Notes under the pieces: model-generated
The model's database searches: none
Seen by the model: only the letters and a program-made list of their open reading frames with translations
What the model was told of the DNA's origin: nothing
Virus record (IMG/VR): IMGVR_UViG_3300043424_000354
Coordinates: 1-64,000 of that record
DNA: 64,000 nucleotides
Source of the DNA: a virus
Reading direction: 5' to 3' (one strand)
Shown here: positions 37,751 to 54,436 of the stretch, piece after piece
How positions within the stretch are numbered: position 1 is the first letter of the stretch
How the letters are laid out: every line of letters starts with the position of its first letter
Position numbers and translations under genes: made by a program

Positions 37751-38079
37751 TATCGTGTTACCTCTGGATTGATTACAACAATACCTTCTAGTACTCTTAG
37801 AGTTTCTTCGTCGCTTTCGATTTCTATGTCGTAAACATACCTTCCTGCTTTTAATGCGCTTGTTTGTGTAGCAGTAAGAGAAATAGTAATCTCACCGTCA
37901 GTTGGCGATGATGCGCTTGCGGTAAAACTAGTTGCTGTTGAAGAGTAATAAGATTTTCTCAGTTGGGCAGTTACTGTATAATCTGTTAAATCTTTCACAT
38001 CACCGTTTTGGTCGCTTACCGTAATTGTCAAGGAGTATGTTGTTCCCTGATCAATATACAAATTTTGAATAGTCGCCAT
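37750..38079 (-). CDS. Ig-like virion structural protein (BppU_N-like)
   Basis: NLYIDQG, AQLRK, GRYVYDI, RVLEG..INPEVT. Confidence 0.7.
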   Translation of the reverse strand: MATIQNLYIDQGTTYSLTITVSDQNGDVKDLTDYTVTAQLRKSYYSSTATSFTASASSPTDGEITISLTATQTSALKAGRYVYDIEIESDEETLRVLEGIVVINPEVTR

Positions 38080-38089
38080 GAGAAACCCT

Positions 38090-38114
38090 TATAAATTATT
38101 CTACACTATTTATA
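38090..38114. promoter_or_regulatory. Oppositely oriented late promoters: TATAAATA (minus, 38107-38114) and TATAAATT (plus, 38090-38097)
   Basis: Motif match in the 49-bp gap between the fibre operon and the glycosyltransferase operon. Confidence 0.6.
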
Positions 38115-38128
38115 AAATTGAGAGTTGT

Positions 38129-38806
38129 ATGAGAACCATTGTGACGATTAAATATGGAACAAAATATTCCGCAGCAGACGTAAATAAAATCGTCGAAGAT
38201 ACTGGCAGGAAGTATACCTACGTTTGTTTCACTGACGATCCTACCGATTTAGATCCAATTGTCCTTGCTTGCCCTCTTCCCAGTGACATCGAAGGTCACT
38301 GGTATAAGGTTTGGTTGTTCAGTCAGAAAGGATTTGGCGATATTTTGTATCTTGATTTAGACGTCAGAATACAAAAAAATATCGATCATCTATGGAATTA
38401 CCTTGACGAACGCCCAACAATAGTTTATACTTACTGGAAAGATAGAGGTTTCCCTGATCATGAAGGTGATACTCACGACATGCGGTATTTGAGTAATTAC
38501 AACTCAAGTGTCATGTTGTGGAAAGAAGGGTCTGGTAAATATATTTGGGATCATTTTAATTCTGACCCTGATTACTTCATGCTGAAATACTTTGGCGACG
38601 ACAGGTTTCTTTGGCATGAAACTTTCGGGTTGAATTGGTTTCCGAAAGGCGAGTTTTATTCTTTTGTTTATGGCGCAGACTATTATGGAATTGATGATCA
38701 CAACGAATCTTTCTGTTATAGACCAGACTACGCCATCGCATTATTGAATGGATTAGATCAGTTCCCTGGGGCAGATAAAGAGTATGATGAACTTCGTATG
38801 CATTAA
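38129..38806 (+). CDS. GT-A fold glycosyltransferase-like protein, paralog 1
   Basis: IKYGTKY, CFTDD, WYKV, YLDLDV (DxD), YNSSVM, GDDRF. Start set at MRTIV (GAGAG SD). Confidence 0.8.
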   Translation: MRTIVTIKYGTKYSAADVNKIVEDTGRKYTYVCFTDDPTDLDPIVLACPLPSDIEGHWYKVWLFSQKGFGDILYLDLDVRIQKNIDHLWNYLDERPTIVYTYWKDRGFPDHEGDTHDMRYLSNYNSSVMLWKEGSGKYIWDHFNSDPDYFMLKYFGDDRFLWHETFGLNWFPKGEFYSFVYGADYYGIDDHNESFCYRPDYAIALLNGLDQFPGADKEYDELRMH

Positions 38807-39542
38807 GTGGGGTGATAAGTATCCTGCTAAATATGTAAACAACCTATACAAGATGGTGCAGAAACACTACGCCAAACCATTTACATTCACATGTTATACT
38901 GATGATGTGGAAGGAATTGAATGTGATACTGCTCCGATTCCTAATGATGGTATTCTACATCCAAAATATTGGTTTGGTAAAGAAACATTTTGTTTTGATC
39001 GCGCCAAGTTCTTAGTTTTCAATTCACATAACTGGTTAGGATACGAGGGTAACTGGTGTTTCTTTGATCTTGACGTAGTAATCCAAGAAGATATAACTGA
39101 CATAGAGGAACTTGCGCAGAAACCTCGGATTATTCAGTGTCGCTGGCAACCAGAATCGCAGAAACATGATAGATTTTTTATAGAGATACGAGGAACATTT
39201 TATAATTCCAGCATGATGGTTTGGCCTGGTAAATCATGCGAACATATTTACAGAGACGTATTAAGTAATTCAGAATCCGTGTTCAAAACTTTCTTCAAGG
39301 GAAGTGACAACTATCATTACTGGAGGCAGCGAGATTTCTGGAAGGATATTCCAGGTGGTTGGGTTTATTCATGGAATCGCGGTAAGCACCACCCGAAAGA
39401 TGTAGAACGTTTTAAATTTCGCTCAGACGCTAAGATCTGTTTATTTAATACGGACAATGTTCCGCATCCATCTGCCAGAGAACAGGAAGAACTGTCTGAC
39501 TGCTTAGACGAAAACATTATTAGATTGTGGAATTGCGAATGA
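38784..39542 (+). CDS. GT-A fold glycosyltransferase-like protein, paralog 2
   Basis: CIKWGDKY, CYTDD, FFDLDV, YNSSMM, GSDNY. Confidence 0.8.
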   Translation: MMNFVCIKWGDKYPAKYVNNLYKMVQKHYAKPFTFTCYTDDVEGIECDTAPIPNDGILHPKYWFGKETFCFDRAKFLVFNSHNWLGYEGNWCFFDLDVVIQEDITDIEELAQKPRIIQCRWQPESQKHDRFFIEIRGTFYNSSMMVWPGKSCEHIYRDVLSNSESVFKTFFKGSDNYHYWRQRDFWKDIPGGWVYSWNRGKHHPKDVERFKFRSDAKICLFNTDNVPHPSAREQEELSDCLDENIIRLWNCE

Positions 39543-40357
39543 GAGTTAATTACGTTTGTTGTAAATGGGGAACCAAATATTCAGCAGAGTTTGTCAATCG
39601 TCTCTACCGAATGGCAAAGAAGCACACACCAGATAGATTTGAGTTTCATTTCTATTGCTATACAGACAACAGTGAAGGTTTTGATCATGAAATTAAAGTC
39701 ATCGACTTCCCAGATATCCCAGACATCCACCCAAAATATTGGTTCGGAACAGAAGATTTCAAATATGGTATGGCACGTTGCTGGGATCGACCCAAGACAT
39801 TTATCTTTAACACCCACAACTTCGCCGAAGATAAACCAACTGGAAGATTTGTATTCTTCGATCTGGATGTGATTATCCAGAACGACTTGTCACCAATCAT
39901 CACATACGATTTTGAGAATCCTACTAAGTTACGTTCTTGGTGGCAGGATCCGCGACCAATGAAGACTCGTAACTTCAAGTTATCACATGGAGCATATACG
40001 AATGGTAGTTGCATGGTGTGGTCAGATGATCAGACAGAATGCATTTGGCAGGATGTTCTAGAACATCAAGAGCGTATTTGGTTTACATTCACCGATGGAA
40101 CTGACAACTATCACAGTTGGCGATGGGGTGATTTTAGTAATACGCCTCTTTGGAAGCATTTTCCAAACACCTTTGCCTACTCGTATAACAGAGGCAGAGA
40201 CTGGAAGTCTAGTGACTTAGAAGTAGGAATATATAGAAAGAACTGTATCCTCTGCGTTTTTAATGTGGACTTACTTCCATTTCAGGATAACAGTAGAGGT
40301 AAAGTGAAGCAAGAGTCGCTAGTCGACCCTGATCTTTTAGAACATTGGAATGTATGA
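39527..40357 (+). CDS. GT-A fold glycosyltransferase-like protein, paralog 3
   Basis: CCKWGTKY, CYTD, FFDLDV, NGSCM, GTDNY. Confidence 0.8.
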   Translation: MELRMRVNYVCCKWGTKYSAEFVNRLYRMAKKHTPDRFEFHFYCYTDNSEGFDHEIKVIDFPDIPDIHPKYWFGTEDFKYGMARCWDRPKTFIFNTHNFAEDKPTGRFVFFDLDVIIQNDLSPIITYDFENPTKLRSWWQDPRPMKTRNFKLSHGAYTNGSCMVWSDDQTECIWQDVLEHQERIWFTFTDGTDNYHSWRWGDFSNTPLWKHFPNTFAYSYNRGRDWKSSDLEVGIYRKNCILCVFNVDLLPFQDNSRGKVKQESLVDPDLLEHWNV

Positions 40358-41040
40358 TGATTAATATTTACACAGTGAAGTGGGGATTTAAGTATGGACC
40401 AGAGCACGTTAATCATATCTTTGAACAGTGCCGACAACATATTACGAGGGAATTTAAATTCTATTGCATTACAGAACATGCGGTAGACTTAAATCCAGAG
40501 ATTACTGTTATTCCGATTCCCGAGAATAATTACTACGAAAAATGGTGGAACAAACTGCATTTGTTTGATCGCAGAGTGATTAGGCAACAGGGAGAGAAAC
40601 TATTCTTAGATCTAGATATCGGCATTCAAAAAAATATTGATTGTATTGTTGATTATGATCCAGAAAATACATTAACGTTTGTTCGTACGCATTGGCACAA
40701 TATGATACAAATGAAAGAAGATACTAAAGAGATCCCACACAAATACACGGATTTAAATTCGAGCGTATTACGTTGGAACGATAGATTAGATACCAATAAA
40801 ATAACTAAATTCGTTCGAGATTATCCTGATCAAATGTTCTACTACTATAGAGGTCTTGATAATCTTTTCGGACATCAGAGAGATCGCCTACTCAATATTA
40901 AATTTTTCCCAGATGGTTGGGTATACAGTTACAACTACGGATATATGTGGCCGTCTGATGTGAGAGAGCGAGTCCATCGAGACGAACCACTTATTTGCTT
41001 ATATGATTCAATGGAAAGACCACAAGATGTTAAACTATAA
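40345..41040 (+). CDS. GT-A fold glycosyltransferase-like protein, paralog 4
   Basis: TVKWGFKY, WWNKL, FLDLDI, NSSVL, GLDNL. Confidence 0.8.
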   Translation: MECMMINIYTVKWGFKYGPEHVNHIFEQCRQHITREFKFYCITEHAVDLNPEITVIPIPENNYYEKWWNKLHLFDRRVIRQQGEKLFLDLDIGIQKNIDCIVDYDPENTLTFVRTHWHNMIQMKEDTKEIPHKYTDLNSSVLRWNDRLDTNKITKFVRDYPDQMFYYYRGLDNLFGHQRDRLLNIKFFPDGWVYSYNYGYMWPSDVRERVHRDEPLICLYDSMERPQDVKL

Positions 41041-41689
41041 TTACTTGAACAATTATCGAAATTGGGGTGATGGTCTGGAAAAGATCGCACACGAGATGCC
41101 GTGGAAGCACGAAGACTTTCGTAAGTCTCTAAATCCGAATACAATGGATGCTGCTATTTGGTTAGTAGAAGAACTACAGAAACACATAGATGTATCTAAG
41201 AAGTTGGATATCACAATTCTAAATTCTTGGTTAGGGTTTCCCCTTGTTCCGCTTCTATGTGAAAATCTAAACGTTAAAAAAATCAACTTGATTGACATCG
41301 ACAAAGATGCATTAGAACTGTCAAAGGTTTTTAACCGATATTATAATAATGAGCAGGGTGTTGAATTAAACCACATCAACTGGGATATCCCTTTCGCATA
41401 TCACGATATTAATGCGTTGGAAACTGATGTGGTAATTTCCCTTTGTTGCGAAACAATGTATCCTCTGAAGAAAATGACAACTGCGAATCCAGATTGCATC
41501 TTTGCCTGCCAGTCATCAAATGTATTCAAAGAAATGTATGGTATCAATTGTGTTCCGACAATTGAAGACCATATTGAGAATGTTGGTGTTGCCGCTGTTG
41601 GATATCATGGATCCATTCAGCAATCCTACTGGTCGTGGGATGGTAAGGTTGAGTTTGATCGCTTTATGGTAATCGGTAAGAAAACTTAA
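41003..41689 (+). CDS. Class I SAM-methyltransferase-fold protein (degenerate motif I; start probably 41027)
   Basis: ILNSWLG, LIDIDK, DVVISLCCE, RFMVIG. Confidence 0.6.
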   Translation: MIQWKDHKMLNYNYLNNYRNWGDGLEKIAHEMPWKHEDFRKSLNPNTMDAAIWLVEELQKHIDVSKKLDITILNSWLGFPLVPLLCENLNVKKINLIDIDKDALELSKVFNRYYNNEQGVELNHINWDIPFAYHDINALETDVVISLCCETMYPLKKMTTANPDCIFACQSSNVFKEMYGINCVPTIEDHIENVGVAAVGYHGSIQQSYWSWDGKVEFDRFMVIGKKT

Positions 41690-42363
41690 CCGAAGTGCGA
41701 GGCATCCTCGCCTGTAATATCTTCGATCATTGACCGCCAGATTTCAAGGTGCGGAACTACGTAACCAAGAGTCAGACGCTTTGCTGTATTTCCGCAACAG
41801 TGATAAACAATCTTGTCTTGTTCCTGCTTGTTACCGAAATACCCAACCTTACACGACCAACCTTTCGGATCGATCATCGTAACAACTTCCTTTGTTACTG
41901 GATCTAGGTATCTGAAAAATCCACCATTTTCTTCTGAGTTATATGTGATCAGAATATTATAACCAGCAGCATTCCAATTAGTATGCCACCCCATAAATCC
42001 ATCTTCGGGATAATATGTGAAGACTGCGTTATTTCTGGCGCCCAGATAACTGATCAATTCTCTATTAGTTTCTTGCTGTCTTCTACCATACTCTGATGGG
42101 AACCACGGTTGCCCATGCGCTTGCGACATATCTGTGCAAAAAGCAACCTCAGGGAATCCCACATGTCGTTCGCCTTTGTTTCTGATATGATTCATATACT
42201 GTTCGTCGGTTGCTGTGATGTGGGTTAATCCCCCTGCACGATCGCTTTGCATTTTTTCTGGTCCGAGAACAAGATGCTGATCGTTTTGTTCAAAAAACCA
42301 TTCAGTAAATGGATCCAGAATATCTTGTAATTCTTGTGAGACAGAACTTGTAAATTTCAGCAT
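41686..42363 (-). CDS. Cupin / 2OG-Fe(II) oxygenase-like protein
   Basis: YYPEDGFMGWHTN...GGFFRY...VYHC...R pattern of a double-stranded beta-helix. Confidence 0.55.
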   Translation of the reverse strand: MLKFTSSVSQELQDILDPFTEWFFEQNDQHLVLGPEKMQSDRAGGLTHITATDEQYMNHIRNKGERHVGFPEVAFCTDMSQAHGQPWFPSEYGRRQQETNRELISYLGARNNAVFTYYPEDGFMGWHTNWNAAGYNILITYNSEENGGFFRYLDPVTKEVVTMIDPKGWSCKVGYFGNKQEQDKIVYHCCGNTAKRLTLGYVVPHLEIWRSMIEDITGEDASHFG

Positions 42364-42939
42364 TCAATAATTCCTAAAATGATCAATAGTTATTTTGTTC
42401 CACACCAACTTGGCACTACATAAATCTTTACCAATGCGCAACATAGTTTCAGCAGTAGGATTAAATCCTCTCTTACTATACTTCACTAATCGTTGGTATG
42501 CCATAAATGGGTGAATATTGTTTTTTCTAAGTCGTAGAGTCTTACTATGTATATCATCCCAAAACTCCTCGGCATAATATATGTTCTTACCGTCAAATGA
42601 AATACAGCAAACAGTAAAGTCATAGTTATGTAATGTGCGAATTGGGTCTACGTATGGATAATCTGTTACTTGTATCTTTTTCCCAAACAAATTAAAGTCG
42701 TAAGAAAACTCGTTTTTATTTGTCTCGGGAGATATTAGTCTAAGATCTTGAATAAACTGTGTTGGATTATCGCTATAGAAATCATAATCGCTTATCGCAG
42801 TATTAGTAAGATGCGAAGTGATTGCGCCTCCTGCCAACCAATAGTTGTAGGATACCTTTCCTATTTTTTGTTTTAAGTTTTCAAATAAATCAAAAAATGG
42901 TTTGAATTTTTCTTGGTCTGCTGGTTTTACGATCATCAA
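42364..42939 (-). CDS. Nucleotidyltransferase (CCA / poly(A) polymerase head-like)
   Basis: LAGGAI, DYD, YDFTV, RLVKY..RGF. Confidence 0.7.
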   Translation of the reverse strand: MMIVKPADQEKFKPFFDLFENLKQKIGKVSYNYWLAGGAITSHLTNTAISDYDFYSDNPTQFIQDLRLISPETNKNEFSYDFNLFGKKIQVTDYPYVDPIRTLHNYDFTVCCISFDGKNIYYAEEFWDDIHSKTLRLRKNNIHPFMAYQRLVKYSKRGFNPTAETMLRIGKDLCSAKLVWNKITIDHFRNY

Positions 42940-43631
42940 TCTAGTAGATTATGTGGGATAGTATAATGATAAATCACAATAGGTTGCCCCTGTAATTCTT
43001 CTTCTCTATACCCCACAACAAAGTTCCATCTTGCATCAGGATCTGGGAATCTACCTGTCTTTACGCCGAAATCATAAAGATTTAGGAGACGCCACATTGT
43101 GAATGTATCCCATTCAATTGCTGCAGCAGGATAGTGTTTTCGATCCCAATCAGGTTTGTTCTGCTCCCAATACTCACCATACCATGCACGCATGAGGTTT
43201 AGAGTCTGGGGATTGTTGCGGTAAATAAAGATACCACAGTGTTCAGTCATCTCTTCAGTTTCAGACAACTTAGTCAGTGCTGCATTATACGGACGATTGG
43301 CGGTGAAGAGAACATCTACATCATCTGGGATCTGATCAAAAATCTTTTGAATATCCTCGTGTTCGACTTCGGTGTCGCAGTCCATATAGACAGTCAGGTC
43401 ATACGGAGTTTGATCAAGCGCCCATAGTTTGGCACGCTTATCGCGAGGAACATTTTCAGTTACTACGTTGTCGAAAATCTCATAGTCGTCTGGTTGCACC
43501 CATTCTTCGTGTGTGAAGAATGTGATTTTTGCATCAGGAAAAAAATCTTTTAGGGAAATCGCCGAGTTTCTTGCTGCCCTATAGTATCCTTTACGCCTAG
43601 TGGCAACATACAGGAATCCATTATTCGGCAC
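42936..43631 (-). CDS. GT8-like glycosyltransferase
   Basis: GFLYVAT, SAISLK, TPYDLTVYMDCD (DxD), WN, IYHY. Confidence 0.75.
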   Translation of the reverse strand: MPNNGFLYVATRRKGYYRAARNSAISLKDFFPDAKITFFTHEEWVQPDDYEIFDNVVTENVPRDKRAKLWALDQTPYDLTVYMDCDTEVEHEDIQKIFDQIPDDVDVLFTANRPYNAALTKLSETEEMTEHCGIFIYRNNPQTLNLMRAWYGEYWEQNKPDWDRKHYPAAAIEWDTFTMWRLLNLYDFGVKTGRFPDPDARWNFVVGYREEELQGQPIVIYHYTIPHNLLD

Positions 43632-44143: not shown

Positions 44144-45727
44144 TTATGCAGTGCGAACCCAAAGTTTTACGGTTGACACTGTCTCTTTAGTTTCAATTAC
44201 TGTTGCGCCTGAATATGTTCCGGAATAAGTTCCCGAGTAGTTGCCTACGTAGTTACCGGAGTAGTTTCTGGAACCTGCGAAGTAACCAGTATAAAATCCT
44301 GTAAAGAATCCTTGGTAATTTCCAGTATATGTTGCAGTTCCAACATAATTTCCGGTAAAGTTATTTGCATATGTTCCGGAATAAGTTCCCGCATAGTTGG
44401 CGGCATAGTTTCTAGAACCAGAGAAGTATCCAGTATATGTTCCTGAATATGTTCCTGCATAGTTAGCAGCATAGTTTCTAGATCCAGCAAAGTATCCAGT
44501 AAAATTACCCAGATAGGTTCCGCTGAACGTACCCGAGAAATAACTTATATAATTTCCCGCAAAAGCAGTACCAGCATAACCACCATAGAAAACAGAATAA
44601 TACCCAACATACCCAGTTGCATATCCTGCGCCAATGTAGTTACCGCTGAAATTGCTAGAATAAGTTCCTGCATAGTTACCAGCATAGTTCCTAGAACCTG
44701 CGTAATACCCTACGTAGTTGCCAGAGAAATTGCCAGCATAGTTGCCTGCGTAATTTCTAGAACCCGCGTATGATCCAGTATAATTTCCTGTGAAATTGCC
44801 TGTATACGTTCCTGAATAGTTTGCCGGACCTACATAACCGCCACTGAAGTTGTTGGCATAATTACCAGAATATGCGCCAGCATAATTACCAGAGTAATTT
44901 CTAGAACCAGCATAGGTTCCTGCGTAGTTACCTGCGTAGTTACCTGCGTAGTTTTGCGGAGTTACTTGTTCACGAGTATCTGCAAACTCATCACCCATTT
45001 GCACCCAAGTGCCGCCAGATGGAGCAGTGGATTGAATCTTATATGTCCCAACGCCGCTATCGATAATTCTATTGCGGAAGTTTGGTAGCATCTGAAGAAT
45101 CTCAGAAGATGACATTTCTTTGACATCTTTCGTATTGATCAGTTTCAGTGGTTTTAGATTGGCATCCGAAAGAGAAGTAGCAGCAGTTTTCTGCCAAAGA
45201 TATGTTGTGGTATTCCCACCATTAGCAACATCGGTTAGCGTGTAACGAGCAACCCACGTCCCGCCTGACGGAGCAGAACCTTGTAGGCGATATTGACCCG
45301 CAGTATACGAAGTCTCCGAAACCATCGCATTAATTGCATAGTCCAGAATTTCGGTATCGATTTGACCATCAGTCATTTCGCGGATACCCGAATCATATTT
45401 CAGCGGACGATTTGTAATACTTTCTGATGCTGCAGCAGAGACCTGCTTTGCGTAGTATGTAACTGTGTCTAATGCACCAGTAGCAGGGTGAGTGCCTGTT
45501 GCTTCTTGGCGATCAGTGTCAGCAAAAGTTCCGATTGCAGTTCCTGCGCCACTATTGTTTGTGGTGATATTTAGTTCGCCAGTGCCAGTACCGTCGGAGT
45601 TAGCACCGAAAGAAACTGTCAATGTTTGGGCGATGTAGTTCTTGACTTCATCAGTAGTCATCTCCTGCAAACCTTGCCAGTTTGCAGAAGAAACAGGTGT
45701 TGCCGAGGATTTGTTTCTCAATACCAT
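44144..45727 (-). CDS. Tyr/Gly tetrapeptide-repeat virion protein, paralog A
   Basis: N-terminal globular region, then about 250 aa of [NT][YF]xG repeats, ending TVSTVKLWVRTA. Confidence 0.75.
   Translation of the reverse strand: MVLRNKSSATPVSSANWQGLQEMTTDEVKNYIAQTLTVSFGANSDGTGTGELNITTNNSGAGTAIGTFADTDRQEATGTHPATGALDTVTYYAKQVSAAASESITNRPLKYDSGIREMTDGQIDTEILDYAINAMVSETSYTAGQYRLQGSAPSGGTWVARYTLTDVANGGNTTTYLWQKTAATSLSDANLKPLKLINTKDVKEMSSSEILQMLPNFRNRIIDSGVGTYKIQSTAPSGGTWVQMGDEFADTREQVTPQNYAGNYAGNYAGTYAGSRNYSGNYAGAYSGNYANNFSGGYVGPANYSGTYTGNFTGNYTGSYAGSRNYAGNYAGNFSGNYVGYYAGSRNYAGNYAGTYSSNFSGNYIGAGYATGYVGYYSVFYGGYAGTAFAGNYISYFSGTFSGTYLGNFTGYFAGSRNYAANYAGTYSGTYTGYFSGSRNYAANYAGTYSGTYANNFTGNYVGTATYTGNYQGFFTGFYTGYFAGSRNYSGNYVGNYSGTYSGTYSGATVIETKETVSTVKLWVRTA
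44205..44953 (-). repeat. 12-bp period coding repeat array (NYxG)
   Basis: For example tandem GTTACCTGCGTA copies near 44926-44953. Confidence 0.9.
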
Positions 45728-45730
45728 AGT

Positions 45731-47722
45731 TTACGCAGTTCTAATCCACAACTTAATTGTTGAAACTGTATCTTTAGTCGCTTGAATCGTCGCACCACTA
45801 TAATTACCAGTAAAGGTATTTATATACGAACCAGAATAGTTTCCGGTGTAAGTTCCGCCGCCTGCATAGTTACCACTGAAGTTGCCCGTGTAATTTGATG
45901 TTGTAGAGAAGGTTCCTTGATAGTTGCCAGAGTAGTTTGCTGGTCCTGTGAAGTACCCCGTATAGAAACCTCCTGGTCCAGAGAAATATCCAGTGTATGG
46001 AGTTGGAGGAACAAATCCGTTATAGTTTCCAGTGTATGATGTACCGTATGCTGGACCTTGGAACGAAACTGTTCCGGAATAATTACCAGCAAAGTTACTT
46101 ACGTATGTTCCGTTATATGTTCTTGAACCTGAATAATATGCTATACCAGTATATCCTGGACCTGTGCCAGCATAGTTGCCAGAATAGGTTCTGGATCCCG
46201 AGTAGGTTGCTGGTCCTACATAATTGCCAGTAAAAGTGCCTCCTGGCGAAGAGAAGGTGTTGGTATAAAATACAGGCAAGTATCCTATACCTGGAATAAA
46301 CTGCGTTTCCTGATATGAACCAGAATATGCTGGACCAGGACCAGTAAAGAATCCAGGACTATAGTAAACTGTCTGCAAACCACTATATGGATCAGGTATC
46401 TGATTTGAGAAATAATCAGTGTAATAATTAGTCCCCGAGTAATACCCTGTATAATAATCTGCCATAAAGGCACCAGTATATCCTGGTCCAGGAGCACCAC
46501 TATAATTACCTGTATATGTGGCAGTTCCTGCGTAACTACCAGCATAGTTTCTCGAACCAGAGTAATATGCTACACCAGAATATGTTGCTCCTGTTCCGGC
46601 ATAATTACCAGCATAGTTTCTTGAACCAGAGTAGTAAGATGCGTAATTACCAGTATATGATGGACCTGGACCACTAAAGAACGGCGAATAGAATGGGGAT
46701 CCAGTATAAGTGCCGGAATAACTGATCAGTGGACCTAGTGGTGCAGTATATGTTGTTCCAGTATAACTTACTGCATTAGTAAAGGTGTTTGAATACCCAG
46801 CAGTTCCAGCATAATTACCAGAAAAGTTACCTGTGTAATTTGAGGTTGTTGAAAAAGTGTTTGAATATGTTCCGCTGTAATTTACTACGCCACCATAGTT
46901 GCCGCTGTAGTTACCAGTGAAATTTCCGCTGTAGTTACCAGCATAATTCTGCGGAGAAACTTGCTCGCGAGTATCGGAAAACTCATTGCCCATCTGAACC
47001 CAAGTTCCACCAGAAGGTGCTGATGATTGTAATTTATAGGTTCCGATTCCGGTATCGATAATTCTATTACGGAAGTTCGGTAGCAGTTGTTCGATTTCAG
47101 ATTCTGTCATCTGCTTGCAGTTGCTGCCGTTGTAACTGCGCAACGGAGTATAATCTGAATTTGGAGAAGATGATGCTACTGTTTTTTGCCAGAGATATGT
47201 AACAGTGTTTCCGCCTTGCGCAGTATCTGTTAGCGTATATCTGGAAACCCAAGTTCCACCCGACGGAGCAGATGCCTGTAGTTTATATTGTCCAGCAGTA
47301 TAACTAGATTCGGCGACCATCGCCTCAATGCAGAGATCCAGCACGCCATCAATATCACCATCACTCATCTCTTCAAGATGAGAATCCCATGCGAGTGGTC
47401 TGTTGGTGATGCTTTCTGATGCCGCAGCAGTTACCTGCTTTGCGTAGTACGTGGTAGTTGTAGTATTTCCAGTCGCGGGATGCGTGCCAATCGATTCAGT
47501 TCTATTGGTATCAACAAAAGATCCGATTGAAGTCCCAGAACCCGAATTGTCTGTTGTGATGTTTATTTCAGCAGTACCTGTACCGTCAGTTACTGCTGCG
47601 AATTTTTCAGTGATAACATTGGCAATATAATTTTTTACCTCTGAATCGGTCATAGTCTGCAAACCGCTGATGTTTGCAGAAGTGATTGGGGACCCTGATG
47701 CTTTGACCTTTAGAGGATTCAT
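45731..47722 (-). CDS. Tyr/Gly tetrapeptide-repeat virion protein, paralog B
   Basis: N-terminal region highly similar to paralog A; about 385 aa repeat array; ends TVSTIKLWIRTA. Confidence 0.75.
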   Translation of the reverse strand: MNPLKVKASGSPITSANISGLQTMTDSEVKNYIANVITEKFAAVTDGTGTAEINITTDNSGSGTSIGSFVDTNRTESIGTHPATGNTTTTTYYAKQVTAAASESITNRPLAWDSHLEEMSDGDIDGVLDLCIEAMVAESSYTAGQYKLQASAPSGGTWVSRYTLTDTAQGGNTVTYLWQKTVASSSPNSDYTPLRSYNGSNCKQMTESEIEQLLPNFRNRIIDTGIGTYKLQSSAPSGGTWVQMGNEFSDTREQVSPQNYAGNYSGNFTGNYSGNYGGVVNYSGTYSNTFSTTSNYTGNFSGNYAGTAGYSNTFTNAVSYTGTTYTAPLGPLISYSGTYTGSPFYSPFFSGPGPSYTGNYASYYSGSRNYAGNYAGTGATYSGVAYYSGSRNYAGSYAGTATYTGNYSGAPGPGYTGAFMADYYTGYYSGTNYYTDYFSNQIPDPYSGLQTVYYSPGFFTGPGPAYSGSYQETQFIPGIGYLPVFYTNTFSSPGGTFTGNYVGPATYSGSRTYSGNYAGTGPGYTGIAYYSGSRTYNGTYVSNFAGNYSGTVSFQGPAYGTSYTGNYNGFVPPTPYTGYFSGPGGFYTGYFTGPANYSGNYQGTFSTTSNYTGNFSGNYAGGGTYTGNYSGSYINTFTGNYSGATIQATKDTVSTIKLWIRTA
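45793..46948 (-). repeat. Coding repeat array (xYxG) with Pro-containing insertions
   Basis: Translated sequence. Confidence 0.9.
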
Positions 47723-48213: not shown

Positions 48214-48450
48214 TTATCCTTGTTTCTGTAGAATTTGTGTTAGTAAGTTTTTAATCTCAATCATCTCATTCTTAAGATTATTTATATCGTCGCCATACGA
48301 TTCAATCTGCATCATGTGTTTTTTACGCGCCTTATATGCTGCTAAGGCAGGGAGGTCATTCGAAAGTATTGCCTTCGAATGACTGTCCCGTTCGTATTTG
48401 TTTGTGTCTGTTAGTTTGATTTTAGTTGACATATTATACCTGCAACGCAA
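48214..48450 (-). CDS. Conserved hypothetical protein
   Basis: RDSHSKAIL...LKNEMIEIKNLL; follows the large structural protein. Confidence 0.6.
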   Translation of the reverse strand: MRCRYNMSTKIKLTDTNKYERDSHSKAILSNDLPALAAYKARKKHMMQIESYGDDINNLKNEMIEIKNLLTQILQKQG

Positions 48451-51400
48451 TCGCTCTTAGTTCTCTTACACGAGGAACAACAGAACTGTTTGACGAAAGA
48501 GGAACAACCTTTACAGCGAACGTCTTATATCCAGTGAAGTTTGCGCTTCCGACAGCATACTCAAAAACGTCGCTTCCGTTTTTATTCGCAGCAGGAATTG
48601 TATATTCATATTCTACAAATCCTGACTTCGAAGCACTATCAAGTGGCGAATTGGTTAGTTCCAATTGAATCCAGTCAAGATCATCAAAGTTTGAGGCATC
48701 AGTTGCATTCTGGAATTTACCGTAAACTGCAACATCACATTCAGACGGAATCTTGTTGCTCAGATATACCTTCAAATCTTCTGCATCTTGACCATCATCA
48801 AGCACAACTCGGCGAGAGATATACTTCGAAGCAGCAGAACCATTGTTACCATCTTCATTCGTAGTAAGATTGTTTACATCATTCGCAACTGCGATAATTG
48901 AACACTTTCTAGTATCAATAACTGGCGAAACAGTAGATGTTTGCGTTACCATACCTGCTCTTACTGTTAGGGATTTATCTCCACCAAGATCTGCTTGCTC
49001 GTTCGAATAGGAATATACCTGTGCTTCGTACGTCAATTCATGTTCTTGACCAAAGTTGAAACCTTCATGGACCGTTCCACCAGCACCAGCACCTGTTGCA
49101 GTTGGTGCAACTGACCAAGAAACTGTCGCAGGAGTATGATCAATAAACCCGATATTGGTTTCTAGAACGTTCAATTGCTTATTCTCGACTTCAGTGATTT
49201 CAGCGTATGTAGTTCCATTACCGACGATGTCTGTAGCAGTAAATGAACCCTTAGTGATCAACAACTTACCGACATTATAGAGAGTATCGTATTGCTTTAC
49301 GAAACCTGTATTGAGAACAACGGTAACTACAGCGCTGGATCCACCGCCACTAGAGATAGTGAGAGTTGGGTTGCTTGTATATCCTGCTCCTGGATCTGTA
49401 ACGACTACATCAGTAACCAGACCGCTCGCGATTGTTACATTAACTGTAGCATTGGTTGTTGCTCCACCCCCCGAGAGGGTATGTGCAATAGTTCCGTCTG
49501 TATAACCACTTCCTGGGTTTGAGATCGTGAACGTGAAACCGTGAACCGTATCACCTGCCGCAAAATTACCATCGGAGAACGAATCAAATTTCAAATAATC
49601 AACGTTCATGTTGCGCATCACAACTGACCCAACAGTATTAATTTCGAAGTCGGCACGACGAAGAGTAAACTTAATATCTTCTTTCTGCCATGCAGTCCAC
49701 GATCTGTTGTTTGCAGAGGTGAATAGAACGCCGACATGCGGTTGTTCTGAAATTCTGTTCTGTGTTCCCAGTTGGTTTTCGCCAAGTTCCGAAACCCAGA
49801 TATTGTAATCTGGATTGTTACCAGCAGGAAGCAGAACAAAGCAATATTCAGTATTGTTTTGCAGATATACTGGTGAAGGGAAGGTGAAGGTTGTTGCTGT
49901 TGCAGCAGTTTCGCTTACCGACACAGCAGAAGGATTCAATGTAACTTCGCCGAACGGAATTACCTTGTTACCAGGATAACCATTTACAACTTCGCGAATC
50001 TGTAGAGTGATTGGCGCTGTCGATGACTTCGTTCTGAAATAGATGTCAAGATTTGTTACATAGCAACCAAAAGGCATACCTTCAACATAGAAAGTTTGAG
50101 CGATTGGATCTCTACCACGCGCAGGTTGCGCACACGGATTGATCGTGTTACACCCTGCAGGAATTGTTATTGGACTGCTGCTGCCGCCGAATGTGACATC
50201 AAAACCACCCAATTCTAAATCAATTGTTGTCGCTTCCCAACATGTTTCAACTGGTGCGCATGGATCTGGTGTTGGTGTATCCACAACCACGACTTCGCGT
50301 GGAGGATCTACTACAGGATCTTCTGTAATAACTGGGGGATCTTGAACGATTTGCGTTACATTAGTATTGTTGATTACAGTGGTGTTAGTTACTGTGTTGT
50401 CAATGTTAGTAACGTTGTTAACAGTTGTGAACGTATTGTTAACTGTTCTTTCGATTACACCAACTTGCCTATCAGCAATTCTATTTTCAGTTCGTTCAGT
50501 TTCGAATATCGATCTAGAATCTGATGTTGATGACAATTCGACATTAGCAACTCTGGTCGAAACAACGGTATCTTGAACGTTTTGCGAAAGACCGTTTGCT
50601 GACCAAGTCTTAGTCGAAGCAGTGGTAATAAACGCATCGCGATTGAATTGGTCGTCGCAGAGACGGAAATTCTTATCGCCTGTTCTGAACGTTGCTGCTG
50701 GAATTCTAAATTGACCGACGCAAACACCCTGTGCATTAGTGATCAGTGGATCTCCATAATCACCATCAGCATATGTTGAATATCTAGCAGGGTCGTTTGG
50801 TTTCTGGTCTGTCGCTGGGTCAAAGTCTAGTGGACGACAATGTTCAGCAACTGCAACACCATCAAAGAATGGATAAACTCTGGTATTTGGTTTTAGTCTC
50901 TGCGCAATAAACGTAACGATTACAGAGCGCATGAACGGAATGATCGAAGTATTCGTTACTCGAGCGCCAGTTCTTTGTGTTTGTGTTTCAGGCGTAACCG
51001 ATAGCGACACACCCTGACGAGTTTGTCTTTGTTGGATTGTTGTTGTAACAACTTGTGTTTGCTGCTGTAATAGCAGGTCGCCGCTAAGAGTAGTGTTACC
51101 TGCAACAGTTTCTGAAGACTGACCAACTGCAGTTCTTCCAGTTACGACATCCTGCCAGTCACCCCATTGAGTTCCCCATGCATCTGATAGATTTTCCCAA
51201 GCATCATAATTGCCGTCGAAGTTTACGCTAACATCTGGTAGTTGTGCGGTATCCGTCCAGTTATCGACTGGTGGATCTAGTTCCATATTTCCGATGTAAT
51301 TGAATAGTAACTCACCGACGCAATTTCTTGGTTTGGAGGCAAATGCGTTCTTAGTCATCTCTACGTTGGTGTACGGTAGAGTGATCAGATCACCTGTCTT

Positions 51401-54400
51401 ATAGACATTGGTTGAACTATCCGAATCGTAACCAATATCAATATTTTCTAGATAGAAGAATGGACGCATCTCTTTCTTTGCAGCATCAATTGAGATATGA
51501 TAAGCAGAATCAAAGACGTTACCAACGTTGTGACCTGTGAAGGCATCAACGAGAATACCATTCTTGAAGCGATCGAGACCAGAACTGTCAGGGATAGAAA
51601 GATCGCTTGCTGCCTTTTCAAGCAGGGATAGCGAAGTATAATACTCAAGGCGATTGATACGTTGTTCCAGAACGCCGATATCGCGCATTGTGTAACGGCG
51701 ATTGTCGATAGCGCGGAATGTTACGCCGTAATCTGGACGATTAACGGTCTTGGCAACATTCGGTGCAAGCGATGGATATGGAGGAATATTAATGATTGCC
51801 AGCGACATCGCATTTTCTGGTTCTGCTGGTGTCAATGGTGTCAGGGAAGGAGTCCCGTAGATAGAACTGAAGATACCTTCAGAGTCAATTATAAGTCTGT
51901 CGGTTCTTCCAAGATAATATTCCAGATCAGTAATAAACTGTTCAGTTGGAACGGGATTCGTAATACCGACGGATGGTGCTGTGATAGTTGTGCTCTCGGT
52001 TGGATTTGTTGTAGCACTACCAACAGTCGTAGAGTTTGCAGCGGAATCCGAGTAACGAACACGGAAGTCTAGAGTGTCGCGAAGATCAAACGACTCACCA
52101 GTGATAGGTGAAGTATAAACAGGAATATCCTGAGTTTTAATTGTTGCAGCAGTAGCACCAGTATCATCAATTGGATACGAGTCAACTGTAAAGAATGTTC
52201 CATCCGCAGAGGAACCATCGTGCGTGAAGTAGTCTAACTTGATTACAAGTTTCTTGTTTGTAAGAGAAGGACCAGACGCTTTCTTGACGATCTTGGCATT
52301 ACGATATTCGTTATCTCGTTGACCCTTATCAAGAGTAAACGAAGAGGCAACATCATTTGCTGCAGCAACTACTGCCGAATCGGAATCAGTATGCGCGCCA
52401 ATGAAGATATTCTTAATTTGATAAACGTCAGAAAGACCAAGCGAATATGTTCCACCACTTGTTGATGGGTGAGTGTTGGTATTAATGATCACATAACGAT
52501 CTTCACGAAGAACCTTTAGAACAGGTTGAGCATTCGCTGATTGGACGTTCACATATAGTTTAACTTGCTTTGGAGCAGAAGTTACGCCACCAGTAAGATC
52601 AATTGTGATTGACTGTGATGAGTTCTTTGTGAATGTAGCGCCAGTAAGATCAAGCACTGAACCAATCGGTCTCGAAACTGAGTTGATTGTCGCCGCTTCT
52701 TTCATCATCATGGTAAAATTATTTTTGATGATTGTTGCAGTAAACGAATCATAAGGGAATGTTTCGTCGCCGCTCAGAGTAATGGTCACTTGACCGTTTG
52801 CGTTAAGTTCCCCATCGAATTCTTTGGTGTAAATAAACGAGTTATCGTAAACAGAACTCGGAGCAATAGTCTTTGTTGCTCTTGCTGGAAGTCTATATAG
52901 AGATCTGTTGAAACTTGTTTCTTGGAGAACAGCATTACCGCCTGTCAAAACTACGTCAGCATGACCATCAGCAGTTGCATCGTTGTAGTAAATACCACGA
53001 ACGTCTTTGAAATCGCCGCTTGACATTTGAATGTCATAGAGATATAATCTATATTCTGCCGCAGCAGCACCCGCAGTCCCAGACTCATAAACAATTTGTC
53101 TTACGCGAGCAGTACCGACTTCGGATCCTGGAGCAGATGTTGCAGAGAACGTTGTTGCAGTTATTGCTCCTGCTGCTGTTCCACGGAGACTTACACGATC
53201 GCCACCATTAAGGTCCCAGAGACCACAGAATTCGTCAACTAGAATATAGTTACCATACGCAGTGCTGATCGAGGATTCCTGAACGGAAACTGTTGTCAGA
53301 CCCTTTGGAACTACAACATATTCTGTTTGGAAAGTTTCATGTTCGAACCCGCGAACATATGCCTTACCTGCCTCGAGACCAATAGCAAGAAGATCTGCGT
53401 CGCCGCCACGTTCTGGGTCGGTAGAATTTAATTCTTTAAGACCGTTGTTTCCGTCTACGTTCAAGTGCTCTTTGATCAGAACAGGGAATTGTCTGACTGC
53501 ATAGTTGCCGGATTCATCATATGTGCGCCTTGCCATGTTCTTGCCAAGTTCGCCGTAGATGTTTGCGGTATATGTTCTTTGAATTTCACCGTTAACAATA
53601 TCAACAAGTTGGTTGAATGTTGCTGGTAGAGTTTCCCCTGTGTCATACTTGACAAGAGTTGTTGTTACTTTGTATCTGTCTGCGCCAGGAGCAGCATAGT
53701 TAAACGATCCCTGTGCTGGATCAAGTAATGTCTGGTCGTCTTCAGAAGAAACAGTAGTTTCTGATAGTTGAAATCCAACCTTTACAGAAGGAAGGTTTGA
53801 ATACTTGGAGAGAATGATTGTTTGCGCTTCGTGGTTTACGAACTTACCATCAATGTAAACAATACCGTCGTCGACAGTAAGAGCAGAAGCAAGACCCCAG
53901 TAACTGTTTGTTGGTTCTGCCTGATCATACGCAGAATCTACTACGAAAGTGTCACCATTTCGTCCGGAGACTGTAGAAGTAACGGTGAGTGTTTCGCCAC
54001 CAGTAAAGTGGACCGCAGTAGTTTCACCATCCCCGCTGGTGTAGCGAAGATAAAGAGTCTTCATATCTGGCGATTCTGCAGCAGTTCCTGTAGCAGTATC
54101 TAAAATGACAGCAGTGATACCAGAAGTGCCACCAGTTACAGTGTCACCAACATAGTCTGCAAGAGTAGTATTACTTACTGCTGCAGATCCTGCATCAGTA
54201 TCAAGGATTTTAACAAACGCTCTGGCAGAGTCGAGTTTAAACTCACAACCCTGTACTACAGAACCGTTCTTGAAGATATGGTCGCCGAATTTACCGATCT
54301 GAGATTGCAACAGAGTCTGCAGTTGCGTAAGTTCGCGTGCCTGAACAGCATATCCAGGTTTAAACAGGACTCGGTTGAAATTCTTTGCATCATCAAAATC

Positions 54401-54436
54401 ATCATAATATGGTGATACATTTAAATTCAGTGCCAT
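48434..54436 (-). CDS. Large virion structural protein (DUF4815 / VrlC-like), 2000 aa
   Basis: NVSPYYDDF, VLFKPGYAVQARELTQLQ, APGADR, RRYTMRDIG, DPIAQTF. Confidence 0.85.
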   Translation of the reverse strand: MALNLNVSPYYDDFDDAKNFNRVLFKPGYAVQARELTQLQTLLQSQIGKFGDHIFKNGSVVQGCEFKLDSARAFVKILDTDAGSAAVSNTTLADYVGDTVTGGTSGITAVILDTATGTAAESPDMKTLYLRYTSGDGETTAVHFTGGETLTVTSTVSGRNGDTFVVDSAYDQAEPTNSYWGLASALTVDDGIVYIDGKFVNHEAQTIILSKYSNLPSVKVGFQLSETTVSSEDDQTLLDPAQGSFNYAAPGADRYKVTTTLVKYDTGETLPATFNQLVDIVNGEIQRTYTANIYGELGKNMARRTYDESGNYAVRQFPVLIKEHLNVDGNNGLKELNSTDPERGGDADLLAIGLEAGKAYVRGFEHETFQTEYVVVPKGLTTVSVQESSISTAYGNYILVDEFCGLWDLNGGDRVSLRGTAAGAITATTFSATSAPGSEVGTARVRQIVYESGTAGAAAAEYRLYLYDIQMSSGDFKDVRGIYYNDATADGHADVVLTGGNAVLQETSFNRSLYRLPARATKTIAPSSVYDNSFIYTKEFDGELNANGQVTITLSGDETFPYDSFTATIIKNNFTMMMKEAATINSVSRPIGSVLDLTGATFTKNSSQSITIDLTGGVTSAPKQVKLYVNVQSANAQPVLKVLREDRYVIINTNTHPSTSGGTYSLGLSDVYQIKNIFIGAHTDSDSAVVAAANDVASSFTLDKGQRDNEYRNAKIVKKASGPSLTNKKLVIKLDYFTHDGSSADGTFFTVDSYPIDDTGATAATIKTQDIPVYTSPITGESFDLRDTLDFRVRYSDSAANSTTVGSATTNPTESTTITAPSVGITNPVPTEQFITDLEYYLGRTDRLIIDSEGIFSSIYGTPSLTPLTPAEPENAMSLAIINIPPYPSLAPNVAKTVNRPDYGVTFRAIDNRRYTMRDIGVLEQRINRLEYYTSLSLLEKAASDLSIPDSSGLDRFKNGILVDAFTGHNVGNVFDSAYHISIDAAKKEMRPFFYLENIDIGYDSDSSTNVYKTGDLITLPYTNVEMTKNAFASKPRNCVGELLFNYIGNMELDPPVDNWTDTAQLPDVSVNFDGNYDAWENLSDAWGTQWGDWQDVVTGRTAVGQSSETVAGNTTLSGDLLLQQQTQVVTTTIQQRQTRQGVSLSVTPETQTQRTGARVTNTSIIPFMRSVIVTFIAQRLKPNTRVYPFFDGVAVAEHCRPLDFDPATDQKPNDPARYSTYADGDYGDPLITNAQGVCVGQFRIPAATFRTGDKNFRLCDDQFNRDAFITTASTKTWSANGLSQNVQDTVVSTRVANVELSSTSDSRSIFETERTENRIADRQVGVIERTVNNTFTTVNNVTNIDNTVTNTTVINNTNVTQIVQDPPVITEDPVVDPPREVVVVDTPTPDPCAPVETCWEATTIDLELGGFDVTFGGSSSPITIPAGCNTINPCAQPARGRDPIAQTFYVEGMPFGCYVTNLDIYFRTKSSTAPITLQIREVVNGYPGNKVIPFGEVTLNPSAVSVSETAATATTFTFPSPVYLQNNTEYCFVLLPAGNNPDYNIWVSELGENQLGTQNRISEQPHVGVLFTSANNRSWTAWQKEDIKFTLRRADFEINTVGSVVMRNMNVDYLKFDSFSDGNFAAGDTVHGFTFTISNPGSGYTDGTIAHTLSGGGATTNATVNVTIASGLVTDVVVTDPGAGYTSNPTLTISSGGGSSAVVTVVLNTGFVKQYDTLYNVGKLLITKGSFTATDIVGNGTTYAEITEVENKQLNVLETNIGFIDHTPATVSWSVAPTATGAGAGGTVHEGFNFGQEHELTYEAQVYSYSNEQADLGGDKSLTVRAGMVTQTSTVSPVIDTRKCSIIAVANDVNNLTTNEDGNNGSAASKYISRRVVLDDGQDAEDLKVYLSNKIPSECDVAVYGKFQNATDASNFDDLDWIQLELTNSPLDSASKSGFVEYEYTIPAANKNGSDVFEYAVGSANFTGYKTFAVKVVPLSSNSSVVPRVRELRAIALQV

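Follow-up and report, generated by a model that had tools for sequence, protein, structure and literature searches.

Evidence for an out-and-back beta-hairpin with length-matched arms in a repeat-rich fibre-type protein of a T4-like virus

The receptor-binding tip of the T4 long tail fibre protein gp37 is an out-and-back needle (Bartual et al. 2010, as summarised in PMC9659904). In pelagimyophages, metagenomic work has described the region from VrlC to gp14 as a hypervariable "host recognition cluster", and in most pelagimyophage genomes the genes that follow VrlC encode tail fibres (PMC7029224). The stretch analysed here (the window) is the first 64 kb of the 108.6-kb IMG/VR virus record IMGVR_UViG_3300043424_000354, and it contains two tandem paralogous genes, gene B and the shorter gene A, which encode the proteins P0001 and P0002, respectively. 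A preliminary description made from the sequence alone had reported a mirror-ordered series of blocks in P0001 and had proposed that the repeat array folds as one very long antiparallel hairpin or needle, with kinks in register, a variable binding tip, and a C-terminal strand that returns to the base. We consider it likely, at a probability of roughly 0.8, that P0001 is a virion fibre-type protein in which the repeat tract forms a single out-and-back beta-hairpin, the arms of which are matched in length across its relatives.

Gene B was identified by open reading frame (ORF) calling and translation at 45731..47722 on the minus strand and encodes 663 amino acids (aa). The interval that had been flagged, 45793-46948 on the same strand, corresponds to residues 259-643 and contains a repeat tract of about 385 residues. 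Autocorrelation of Tyr/Phe and of Gly peaked at a lag of 4, giving a repeat period of 4 with the tetrad xYxG, and the phase of the tetrads was interrupted every 10 to 26 residues by regular dipeptide insertions (SR, PA, TA, and VV). The tract consisted of 19% Gly and 24% Tyr plus Phe, with no His, Cys, Lys, or Trp. More than 792 metagenomic homologs of P0001 were found at an E value of ≤0.001, and the family-wide comparisons below drew on 120 members per search. The parts of the gene were as follows, with the evidence for each in parentheses.

45731..47722, minus strand: gene B, encoding P0001, a probable fold-back repeat fibre-like protein (ORF, >792 metagenomic homologs)
46949..47722, minus strand: N-terminal base domain, aa 1-258, three related helix-plus-hairpin modules (AlphaFold, module alignment)
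46523..46948, minus strand: outgoing (N) arm, aa 259-400, xYxG tetrapeptide repeats, containing blocks A and C (period-4 autocorrelation, mirrored insertions and deletions, anti-diagonal covariation)
46805-46858, minus strand: block A in the N arm
46544-46633, minus strand: block C in the N arm
46223..46522, minus strand: central region, aa 401-500, irregular and hypervariable, the presumed tip (low identity, unpaired insertions and deletions)
45797..46222, minus strand: returning (C) arm, aa 501-642, containing blocks C' and A' (same evidence as for the N arm)
46115-46204, minus strand: block C' in the C arm
45860-45913, minus strand: block A' in the C arm
45734..45796, minus strand: conserved C-terminal strand, aa 643-663, probably closing the hairpin at the base domain (homolog identity, AlphaFold)

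Insertions and deletions (indels) in the family were mirrored between the two arms and arm lengths were equal across it, which is the reverse of the one-armed length changes that the preliminary description had named as evidence against a hairpin. The closest homolog, P0003, which is 88% identical to P0001, differed by two 10-aa deletions, one at 288-297 in block A and one at 600-609 in block A', together with one 1-aa insertion. Homologs that were 64 to 70% identical to P0001 contained the following mirrored indels, given in P0001 positions.

N arm 293, C arm 604: +4/+4
N arm 265, C arm 636: +4/+4
N arm 298, C arm 609: +4/+4
N arm 377, C arm 527: -3/-2
N arm 411, C arm 500: +13/+16
N arm 275, C arm 621-632: -6/-6

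In total, 10 of the 13 N-arm indels of at least 2 aa had a partner of the same sign at |i+j-900| ≤ 12, against a null mean of 4.5 (P=0.0004, uncorrected for shared ancestry and representing at least six distinct events). Many unpaired indels were found in residues 400-500.

The shorter homologs, including P0002, shared a conserved central turn motif, [YF][YF]GG[FY]VGG, which allowed arm lengths to be measured independently of any alignment, the N arm running from the end of the conserved base domain to the turn motif and the C arm from the turn motif to the conserved C-terminal strand. Among 110 homologs with a single central turn motif, representing 52 length classes, the lengths of the two arms were correlated at r=0.96; the modal difference between arms was exactly 2 residues, and the arms ranged from 46 to 144 residues. 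Independently, 71 IMG/VR loci yielded 22 length classes, the shortest with arms of 78/76 aa and the longest with arms of 284/282 aa; the difference was exactly 2 in 17 of the 22 classes, and r was 0.997. In one subfamily, the units nearest the tip differed in sequence between the arms, and their counts were equal, at 0/0, 1/1, and 2/2 in the 391-, 435-, and ~474-aa classes, respectively. Judged from these sequences, the universal rule would be one of equal arm length and not of equal sequence.

Covariation was measured as average product correction (APC)-corrected mutual information averaged along every diagonal and anti-diagonal, in two subfamilies of near-equal length with 30 distinct sequences each. 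This check, which the preliminary description had proposed, placed the maximum on the anti-diagonal through the turn, so that the absence of anti-diagonal contacts, named there as the other outcome against a hairpin, was not observed. In one subfamily the maximum fell at i+j=167 (z 4.4-4.7) and in the other at 207-208 (z 4.9-5.2), in both cases between the two turn Gly residues, and the result held on gap-free columns. The best diagonal reached a z of 2.4 on gap-free columns and ~3.1 with gapped columns (class-80 set). The position of the maximum between two Gly residues indicates a two-residue Gly-Gly turn flanked by aromatic residues. A long class of 34 proteins including P0001 was analyzed in P0001 coordinates at a separation of at least 40; its ten best lines were all anti-diagonals, at 886 to 906, with a z of 4.6 at 899 and of 4.2 at 905, and 30% of the 40 strongest pairs lay at i+j 893-912, compared with 5.4% expected. 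Residues 286/614 and 324/579 were among the most strongly covarying pairs. For P0001, the arm rule in its canonical form puts i+j at 900, and the covariation peaks were at 899-905. This sum of about 900 places the hairpin center of P0001 near residue 450, between the two Pro-rich loops, and a degenerate turn-like motif at aa 453-461 adjoins the predicted center. The features of a parallel beta-solenoid, namely a fixed rung length and diagonal covariation, were not found, the period being 4, the super-repeats irregular, and the diagonal signal weaker than the anti-diagonal one. Together, the mirrored indels, the equal arms, and the anti-diagonal covariation support the fold-back reading and demonstrate both the topology and the arm-length rule.

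All blocks and loops quoted in the preliminary description were located in P0001 by string search, with block A at aa 289, B at 348, C at 364, C' at 507, B' at 579, and A' at 604 and the two Pro-rich loops at 441 and 473. Of the mirror order A-B-C...C'-B'-A' that it had proposed, the A/A' and C/C' pairs stood: they were nested and lay far above the repeat background in the self dot-plot, in which ungapped BLOSUM62 scoring recovered 270-323/585-638 (score of 159, 30/54 identical), which includes A/A', and 364-397/507-540 (score of 144, 25/34 identical), which includes C/C'. Block A' was identical to A at 18/18 residues, as had been stated. The B/B' pair did not stand. The GPG-type motif found in B had at least six copies, at about aa 348, 409, 458, 491, 520, and 579; B resembled the copy at 458 no less than it resembled B', and the centers of B and B' summed to 937, about 30 residues off register relative to the covariation band of 885-909. 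Since the motif recurs, an equally good copy exists at 458, and the sum lies outside the band, the pairing of B with B' is unsupported.

At the DNA level, A and A' were only ~70% identical and C and C' ~75% identical, and every difference within the 18 identical residues of A/A' was synonymous. Protein identity combined with synonymous divergence of this extent points to an old similarity maintained at the protein level rather than a recent duplication. The nesting of two pairs in a single protein has a probability of about 1 in 3 by chance. In a set of 40 homologs, each 580 aa or longer, the midpoints of the strongest self-similar pairs at long range were a median of 3 aa from the tract center (half-lengths of 143 to 250), and where a homolog of this set had two nonoverlapping pairs, the arrangement was nested in 14 cases, crossed in 1, and serial in 0. 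The mirror pattern exceeds chance at the family level. Some homologs contained near-identical direct copies of whole arms, and arm-long or perfectly identical duplicated blocks occurred, for example one with 43/43 residues identical in P0028 and blocks of 128 aa in P0062, P0074, and P0077. Isolated changes ran in parallel in the two arms, examples being a replacement of Tyr by Phe that C and C' of P0003 share at one block position and a Pro-Ala-Asn variant common to the two arms of P0006.

Identity to the homologs fell from the base (83-98%), the most conserved part, through the arms (35-85%) to the center (24-73%), a demonstrated gradient that bears out the variability of the tip that had been proposed. 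The two arms tracked each other in identity (N/C, 85/83, 69/68, 75/72, and 73/71%), and the center was 24 to 42% identical in homologs with arms that were 51 to 75% identical. The C-terminal strand, aa 643-663, was 85 to 100% identical. In P0010, the base was 98% identical to that of P0001, and the arms were only 43 to 51% identical, a pattern that suggests a recombinational (modular) swap of the whole hairpin onto a conserved base. A hypervariable center and divergent arms over a conserved base are the usual signature of phage host-range determinants, and the center of P0001 is accordingly placed here as a putative receptor-binding tip.

Structure prediction of the P0001 monomer, another check that had been proposed, placed the base and the closing strands and left the arms without a resolved model. 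In the AlphaFold2 model, based on a 49-sequence alignment, residues 1-258 were predicted with confidence (predicted local distance difference test score [pLDDT] of about 85-95), and two long strands, 248-268 and 635-662, adjoined the confident base, with the pLDDT rising to 83-88. Two observations support a return of the C-terminal strand to the base: the position of these strands beside the N-terminal domain and the homology of the flanks of the tract to the short hairpin of a sister module. VIA also weakly matched model residues 251..658 to a DNA-bending protein at its two-stranded beta-ribbon arm, consistent with a side-by-side position of the two strands. In the AlphaFold2 model of a 391-aa homolog, strands were symmetric about the turn (262-278/350-367 and 292-309/319-336), at low pLDDT. 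Within the base, modules 2 and 3 aligned at z=12.4, and modules 1 and 2 aligned only at z=2.6. The alignment of modules 2 and 3 ended at a conserved motif, after which module 2 has a hairpin of ~25 residues and module 3 has the repeat tract; given this shared motif, the tract appears to be an expansion of the module hairpin. A likeness between the C-terminal strand and the second strand of module 2 was visible by eye and was not significant alone. The best structural matches of the base, taken with the closing strands, were the MABP and perforin-2 P2 beta-prism domains (Z 6.2-6.4, 112 to 120 aligned residues), which is below the 7 to 8 that is typical of unrelated best hits with VIA and makes the resemblance no more than a lead. 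The kinks in register found no support, in that the prolines of P0001 showed no significant mirror symmetry (P=0.43), with equal scores in other registers.

The following mechanism would account for these results. Residues 1-258 would form a globular base of three related modules, and in module 3 a beta-hairpin of the size found in the sister module, about 25 residues, would have been expanded to the tract of ~385 residues. The chain would run out to a turn near residue 450 and back, residue i lying opposite approximately 900-i, and the last 21 residues would rejoin the base. If the strands must keep register, indels would be fixed only in matched pairs. Segments at one level would tend toward the same sequence in the same chemical direction, forming a locally two-fold symmetric, self-complementary antiparallel pair, and it is for this reason, we infer, that the order A..C..C'..A' is mirrored. 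The hairpin is probably an extended shaft, which at ~0.33 nm per residue pair would measure some 45 to 65 nm in P0001. Tyr of one strand would pack over Gly of its neighbor, and the Tyr/Gly face would be buried by oligomerization, probably as a trimer by analogy with other fibers.

A broader proposal, for which we see about even odds, is that this is a new fiber architecture in which a module hairpin has become a length-tunable Tyr-Gly "zipper" ribbon of up to 2x284 residues, in which an arm rule of N = C + 2 around a Gly-Gly turn governs gene evolution, and in which each phage deploys a long, tip-elaborated version and a short, plain version as host-recognition appendages.

Several results weigh against the fold-back reading. 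A minority of homologs deviated from equal arms by about one super-repeat (+24, -18, ±10, or -6 aa), with arms of, for example, 94/70, 102/77, and 96/113; P0108, with arms of 102/77, had tip-proximal unit counts of 2/1. The exceptions of roughly +24 or -18 aa were P0073, P0081, P0088, P0101, and P0108. Such exceptions may be uncompensated intermediates, side bulges, or assembly errors. In global alignments to 31 homologs, the net changes in the N and C arms were weakly correlated (Pearson, 0.30 [P=0.10]; Spearman, 0.37 [P=0.04]), probably because global alignment of repeats is unreliable. A test for concerted evolution of the arms was negative: cross-arm identity was 24.0 and 24.25 within a protein versus 23.1 and 23.8 between proteins, which indicates no general concerted sequence evolution. 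The AlphaFold2 pLDDT was ~30 over residues 270-632, except in a small local hairpin at 472-484 (pLDDT of ~61), and it was ~40 in the arms of the 391-aa homolog. Finally, tblastn searches with the whole of P0001 and with the N-terminal domain alone against 50,697 phage records gave no match, and thus no cultured phage with a homolog was found.

Other searches were similarly unproductive. Neither P0001 nor P0002 matched any Pfam or PHROGs family, Foldseek against the PDB returned nothing at an E value of ≤0.001, and a profile search of PDB sequences returned nothing relevant. The ESM Atlas gave solely unnamed viral clusters, and its model of P0001 had a pLDDT of 0.40. In the literature, no description of a tetrapeptide-repeat fold-back phage fiber was found.

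The virus is T4-like and related to pelagimyophages, methylophages, and cyanomyophages. T4-type genes in the window included those for the capsid, portal, sheath, baseplate hub and wedge, DNA polymerase, clamp loader, and gp46/47-like proteins, and the major capsid protein was 64 to 69% identical to those of Methylophilales phage Melnitz, Pelagibacter phages HTVC008M and Mosig, and cyanomyophages. The baseplate genes and VrlC lie upstream of P0001, and the two paralogs occupy the VrlC-downstream position of the host-recognition cluster, a genomic context that the following neighboring genes demonstrate.

44144..45727, minus strand: gene A, encoding P0002, the 527-aa shorter tandem paralog, with the turn motif and arms of 127/124 aa
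47725..48207, minus strand: 160-aa gene directly upstream of gene B; a homolog lies directly upstream of the pair in 35/35 loci
48434..54436, minus strand: VrlC homolog, 2000 aa, DUF4815 (Pfam PF16075), at the edge of the host-recognition cluster

The VrlC homolog shared 40% identity with the protein annotated as VrlC in Pelagibacter phage HTVC008M. It and the homolog of the 160-aa gene preceded the pair in all 35 loci with enough upstream DNA, making a four-gene module. The canonical turn motif of P0002 was at aa 380-387 (window positions 44567-44590). A tandem pair of family members was present in 50 of 64 related loci, and the first gene had the longer tract in 27 of 27 distinct pairs. The pattern within a pair was a longer, tip-elaborated paralog followed by a shorter one with a plain Gly-Gly turn. 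The repeat lengths of the two paralogs correlated modestly (Spearman, 0.45; P=0.018). The first dipeptide insertion occurred at a different tetrad in P0001 than in P0002, and there was thus no sign of a side-by-side alignment of the two proteins.

The evidence for strand pairing bears unequally on the alternatives. That the mirror order arose by chance in a low-complexity Tyr/Gly repeat, the tract being disordered or a parallel solenoid without long-range coupling, is extremely improbable. P0001 taken singly would permit it, with just two robust pairs, a prior of about 1 in 3 for their nesting, no specific B/B' pair, a pLDDT of ~30 across the tract, and an unremarkable proline test, but it leaves unexplained the paired indels, the matching of arm lengths in two independent data sets, covariation that is anti-diagonal and not diagonal, and the 14:1 ratio of nested to crossed pairs. 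We also regard it as very improbable that the symmetry was produced at the DNA level, by nested duplication, for instance, or by ectopic gene conversion from one half to the other, with equal arms having no structural necessity. The tract DNA is rich in direct repeats of 12 nucleotides (nt) and 54 to 78 nt, which could recombine, and the arm-long or perfectly identical blocks of P0028, P0062, P0074, and P0077 are further points in its favor. Against this, A and A' match at every residue and differ at some 30% of nucleotides, all synonymously; the arms are equal even where the unit types near the tip differ between them; the matched deletions of P0003 are two separate events in an otherwise 88%-identical protein; and substitution covariation persists on gap-free columns.

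The remaining alternatives accept the fold-back and differ on shape or function. The comparative evidence constrains strand pairing and not overall shape, so the hairpin might be wound or stacked compactly, for example into a sandwich or a two-stranded beta-helix, or might be divided at the dipeptide insertions into a bundle of hairpin segments. The interruption of the tetrad phase every 10 to 26 residues and the strand breaks at 279-291 and 337-349 in the AlphaFold model of the short homolog are compatible with this arrangement, and it seems mechanically implausible that a ribbon whose arms reach 284 residues would stand in isolation. We nevertheless judge a compact fold to be quite unlikely: rung-to-rung contacts were sought as a secondary diagonal or an offset anti-diagonal in the covariation and none were found (best diagonal z, 2.4), and a linear shaft could accommodate the near-continuous variation of arm length from 46 to 284 residues more easily than could a compact, closed fold. 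A role other than receptor binding, in which the fold-back fiber is a whisker, a decoration, or a spacer or works only with its shorter paralog (the two forming, for example, a hetero-oligomer or successive parts of a single appendage), is unlikely but deserves serious consideration. The long-then-short pairing with its constant order and the modest correlation of paralog repeat lengths speak for it, and the location of the gene in the host-recognition cluster downstream of VrlC, the hypervariable center, the divergent arms over a conserved base in P0010, and the different positions of the first dipeptide insertion in the two window paralogs, which give no indication of side-by-side alignment, speak for the fold-back fiber with a putative receptor-binding tip preferred here.

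Some further features of the tract and its surroundings were recorded. Alternative frames of the repeat DNA were open over long stretches, with overlapping ORFs at 44245-44490 and 45820-46092 in the window. In the homologs P0036 and P0037, an out-of-frame reading of the repeat DNA began partway through the tract; such frameshifts could be real variants or could stem from sequencing or assembly. Of the 35 Asn residues in the P0001 tract, 14 (~40%) were in N-x-S/T triplets, which may be incidental because Ala or Val was equally common at that position. Adjoining the fiber pair, window positions 38078-43631 contained eight small genes in two convergent groups, among which only that at 38078-38806 matched a PHROG glycosyltransferase family (E=1.8e-13), and none had a significant Pfam match. 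A 566-aa protein encoded at 35774-37474 had a marginal Pfam match to a right-handed beta-helix (E=0.0098) and a PHROG match to "structural protein"; it may be another fiber or spike of the cluster.

P0001 belongs to a large uncharacterized family that occupies the position where abundant aquatic T4-like phages keep their host-range determinants. The residue-level pairing map, with i+j of ~900 in P0001, was obtained without a solved structure and makes the fold directly testable, and hundreds of metagenomic proteins can be annotated for turn, arms, and tip by the simple arm rule. An extended shaft would make the family a natural series of fibers with length set by repeat number and an unusually clean example of compensatory indels enforced by structure. 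Knowledge of the variable tip would help to link uncultured phages to their hosts and receptors.

Among known systems, the fiber genes of the host-recognition cluster in pelagimyophages and cyanomyophages, a cluster bounded by VrlC and the neck gene gp14, share with P0001 a position directly downstream of VrlC in a T4-like genome. Fibers built from repeats include pentapeptide-repeat solenoids, the triple beta-helix of T4 gp5 and gp12, and the Gly-rich polyglycine-II adhesin gp38 of phage S16. As in P0001, a short-period, Gly-containing repeat encodes an elongated, length-tunable element of a host-recognition protein; in P0001, however, the period is 4 and not 3, 5, or 8, and the coupling is antiparallel across the tract and not rung to rung. 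The P2 beta-prism of perforin-2 (MPEG1) and the MABP domain, to which the base of P0001 gave its best matches, have a three-fold pseudo-symmetric fold with a protruding hairpin, and the base of P0001 contains three internally related modules; identity is 10 to 15%, function and context are unrelated, and the hairpin of P0001 is one to two orders of magnitude longer. Bovine antibodies with an ultralong third heavy-chain complementarity-determining region (CDR H3) carry a two-stranded ribbon stalk, with ~10 to 12 residues per strand, topped by a hypervariable, disulfide-rich knob. By analogy only, both cases would represent an ordinary hairpin loop of a globular domain elaborated into a stalk with a hypervariable distal region, although the tract of P0001 has no cysteines and the arms in its family reach 284 residues.

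The closest functional parallel is the gp37 tip. Its chain, like the one proposed for P0001, runs out along a thin antiparallel-beta shaft to a distal specificity region and then back; similar motifs occur at the same level in the ascending and descending parts, and both genes lie in the tail-fiber region of a T4-like myovirus. Antiparallel out-and-back strands are indicated in the P0001 family by the mirrored indels, equal arms, and anti-diagonal covariation. In the gp37 needle, His-x-His motifs coordinate a line of iron, whereas the P0001 tract contains no His, and Pfam, PHROG, PDB-sequence profile, and tblastn searches found no similarity between the two proteins. The P0001 family has an xYxG-tetrad shaft that is many times longer and freely variable in length, from 2x46 to 2x284 residues. 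This shaft emerges from the hairpin of a globular N-terminal module, whereas the gp37 needle is the C-terminal end of a long trimeric fiber. The latter is a six-stranded homotrimer, and P0001 is a putative trimer. Given the lack of His motifs and of homology, the different repeat, and the greater and variable length, P0001 would work like a fold-back fiber of the gp37 type rather than being a member of that group.

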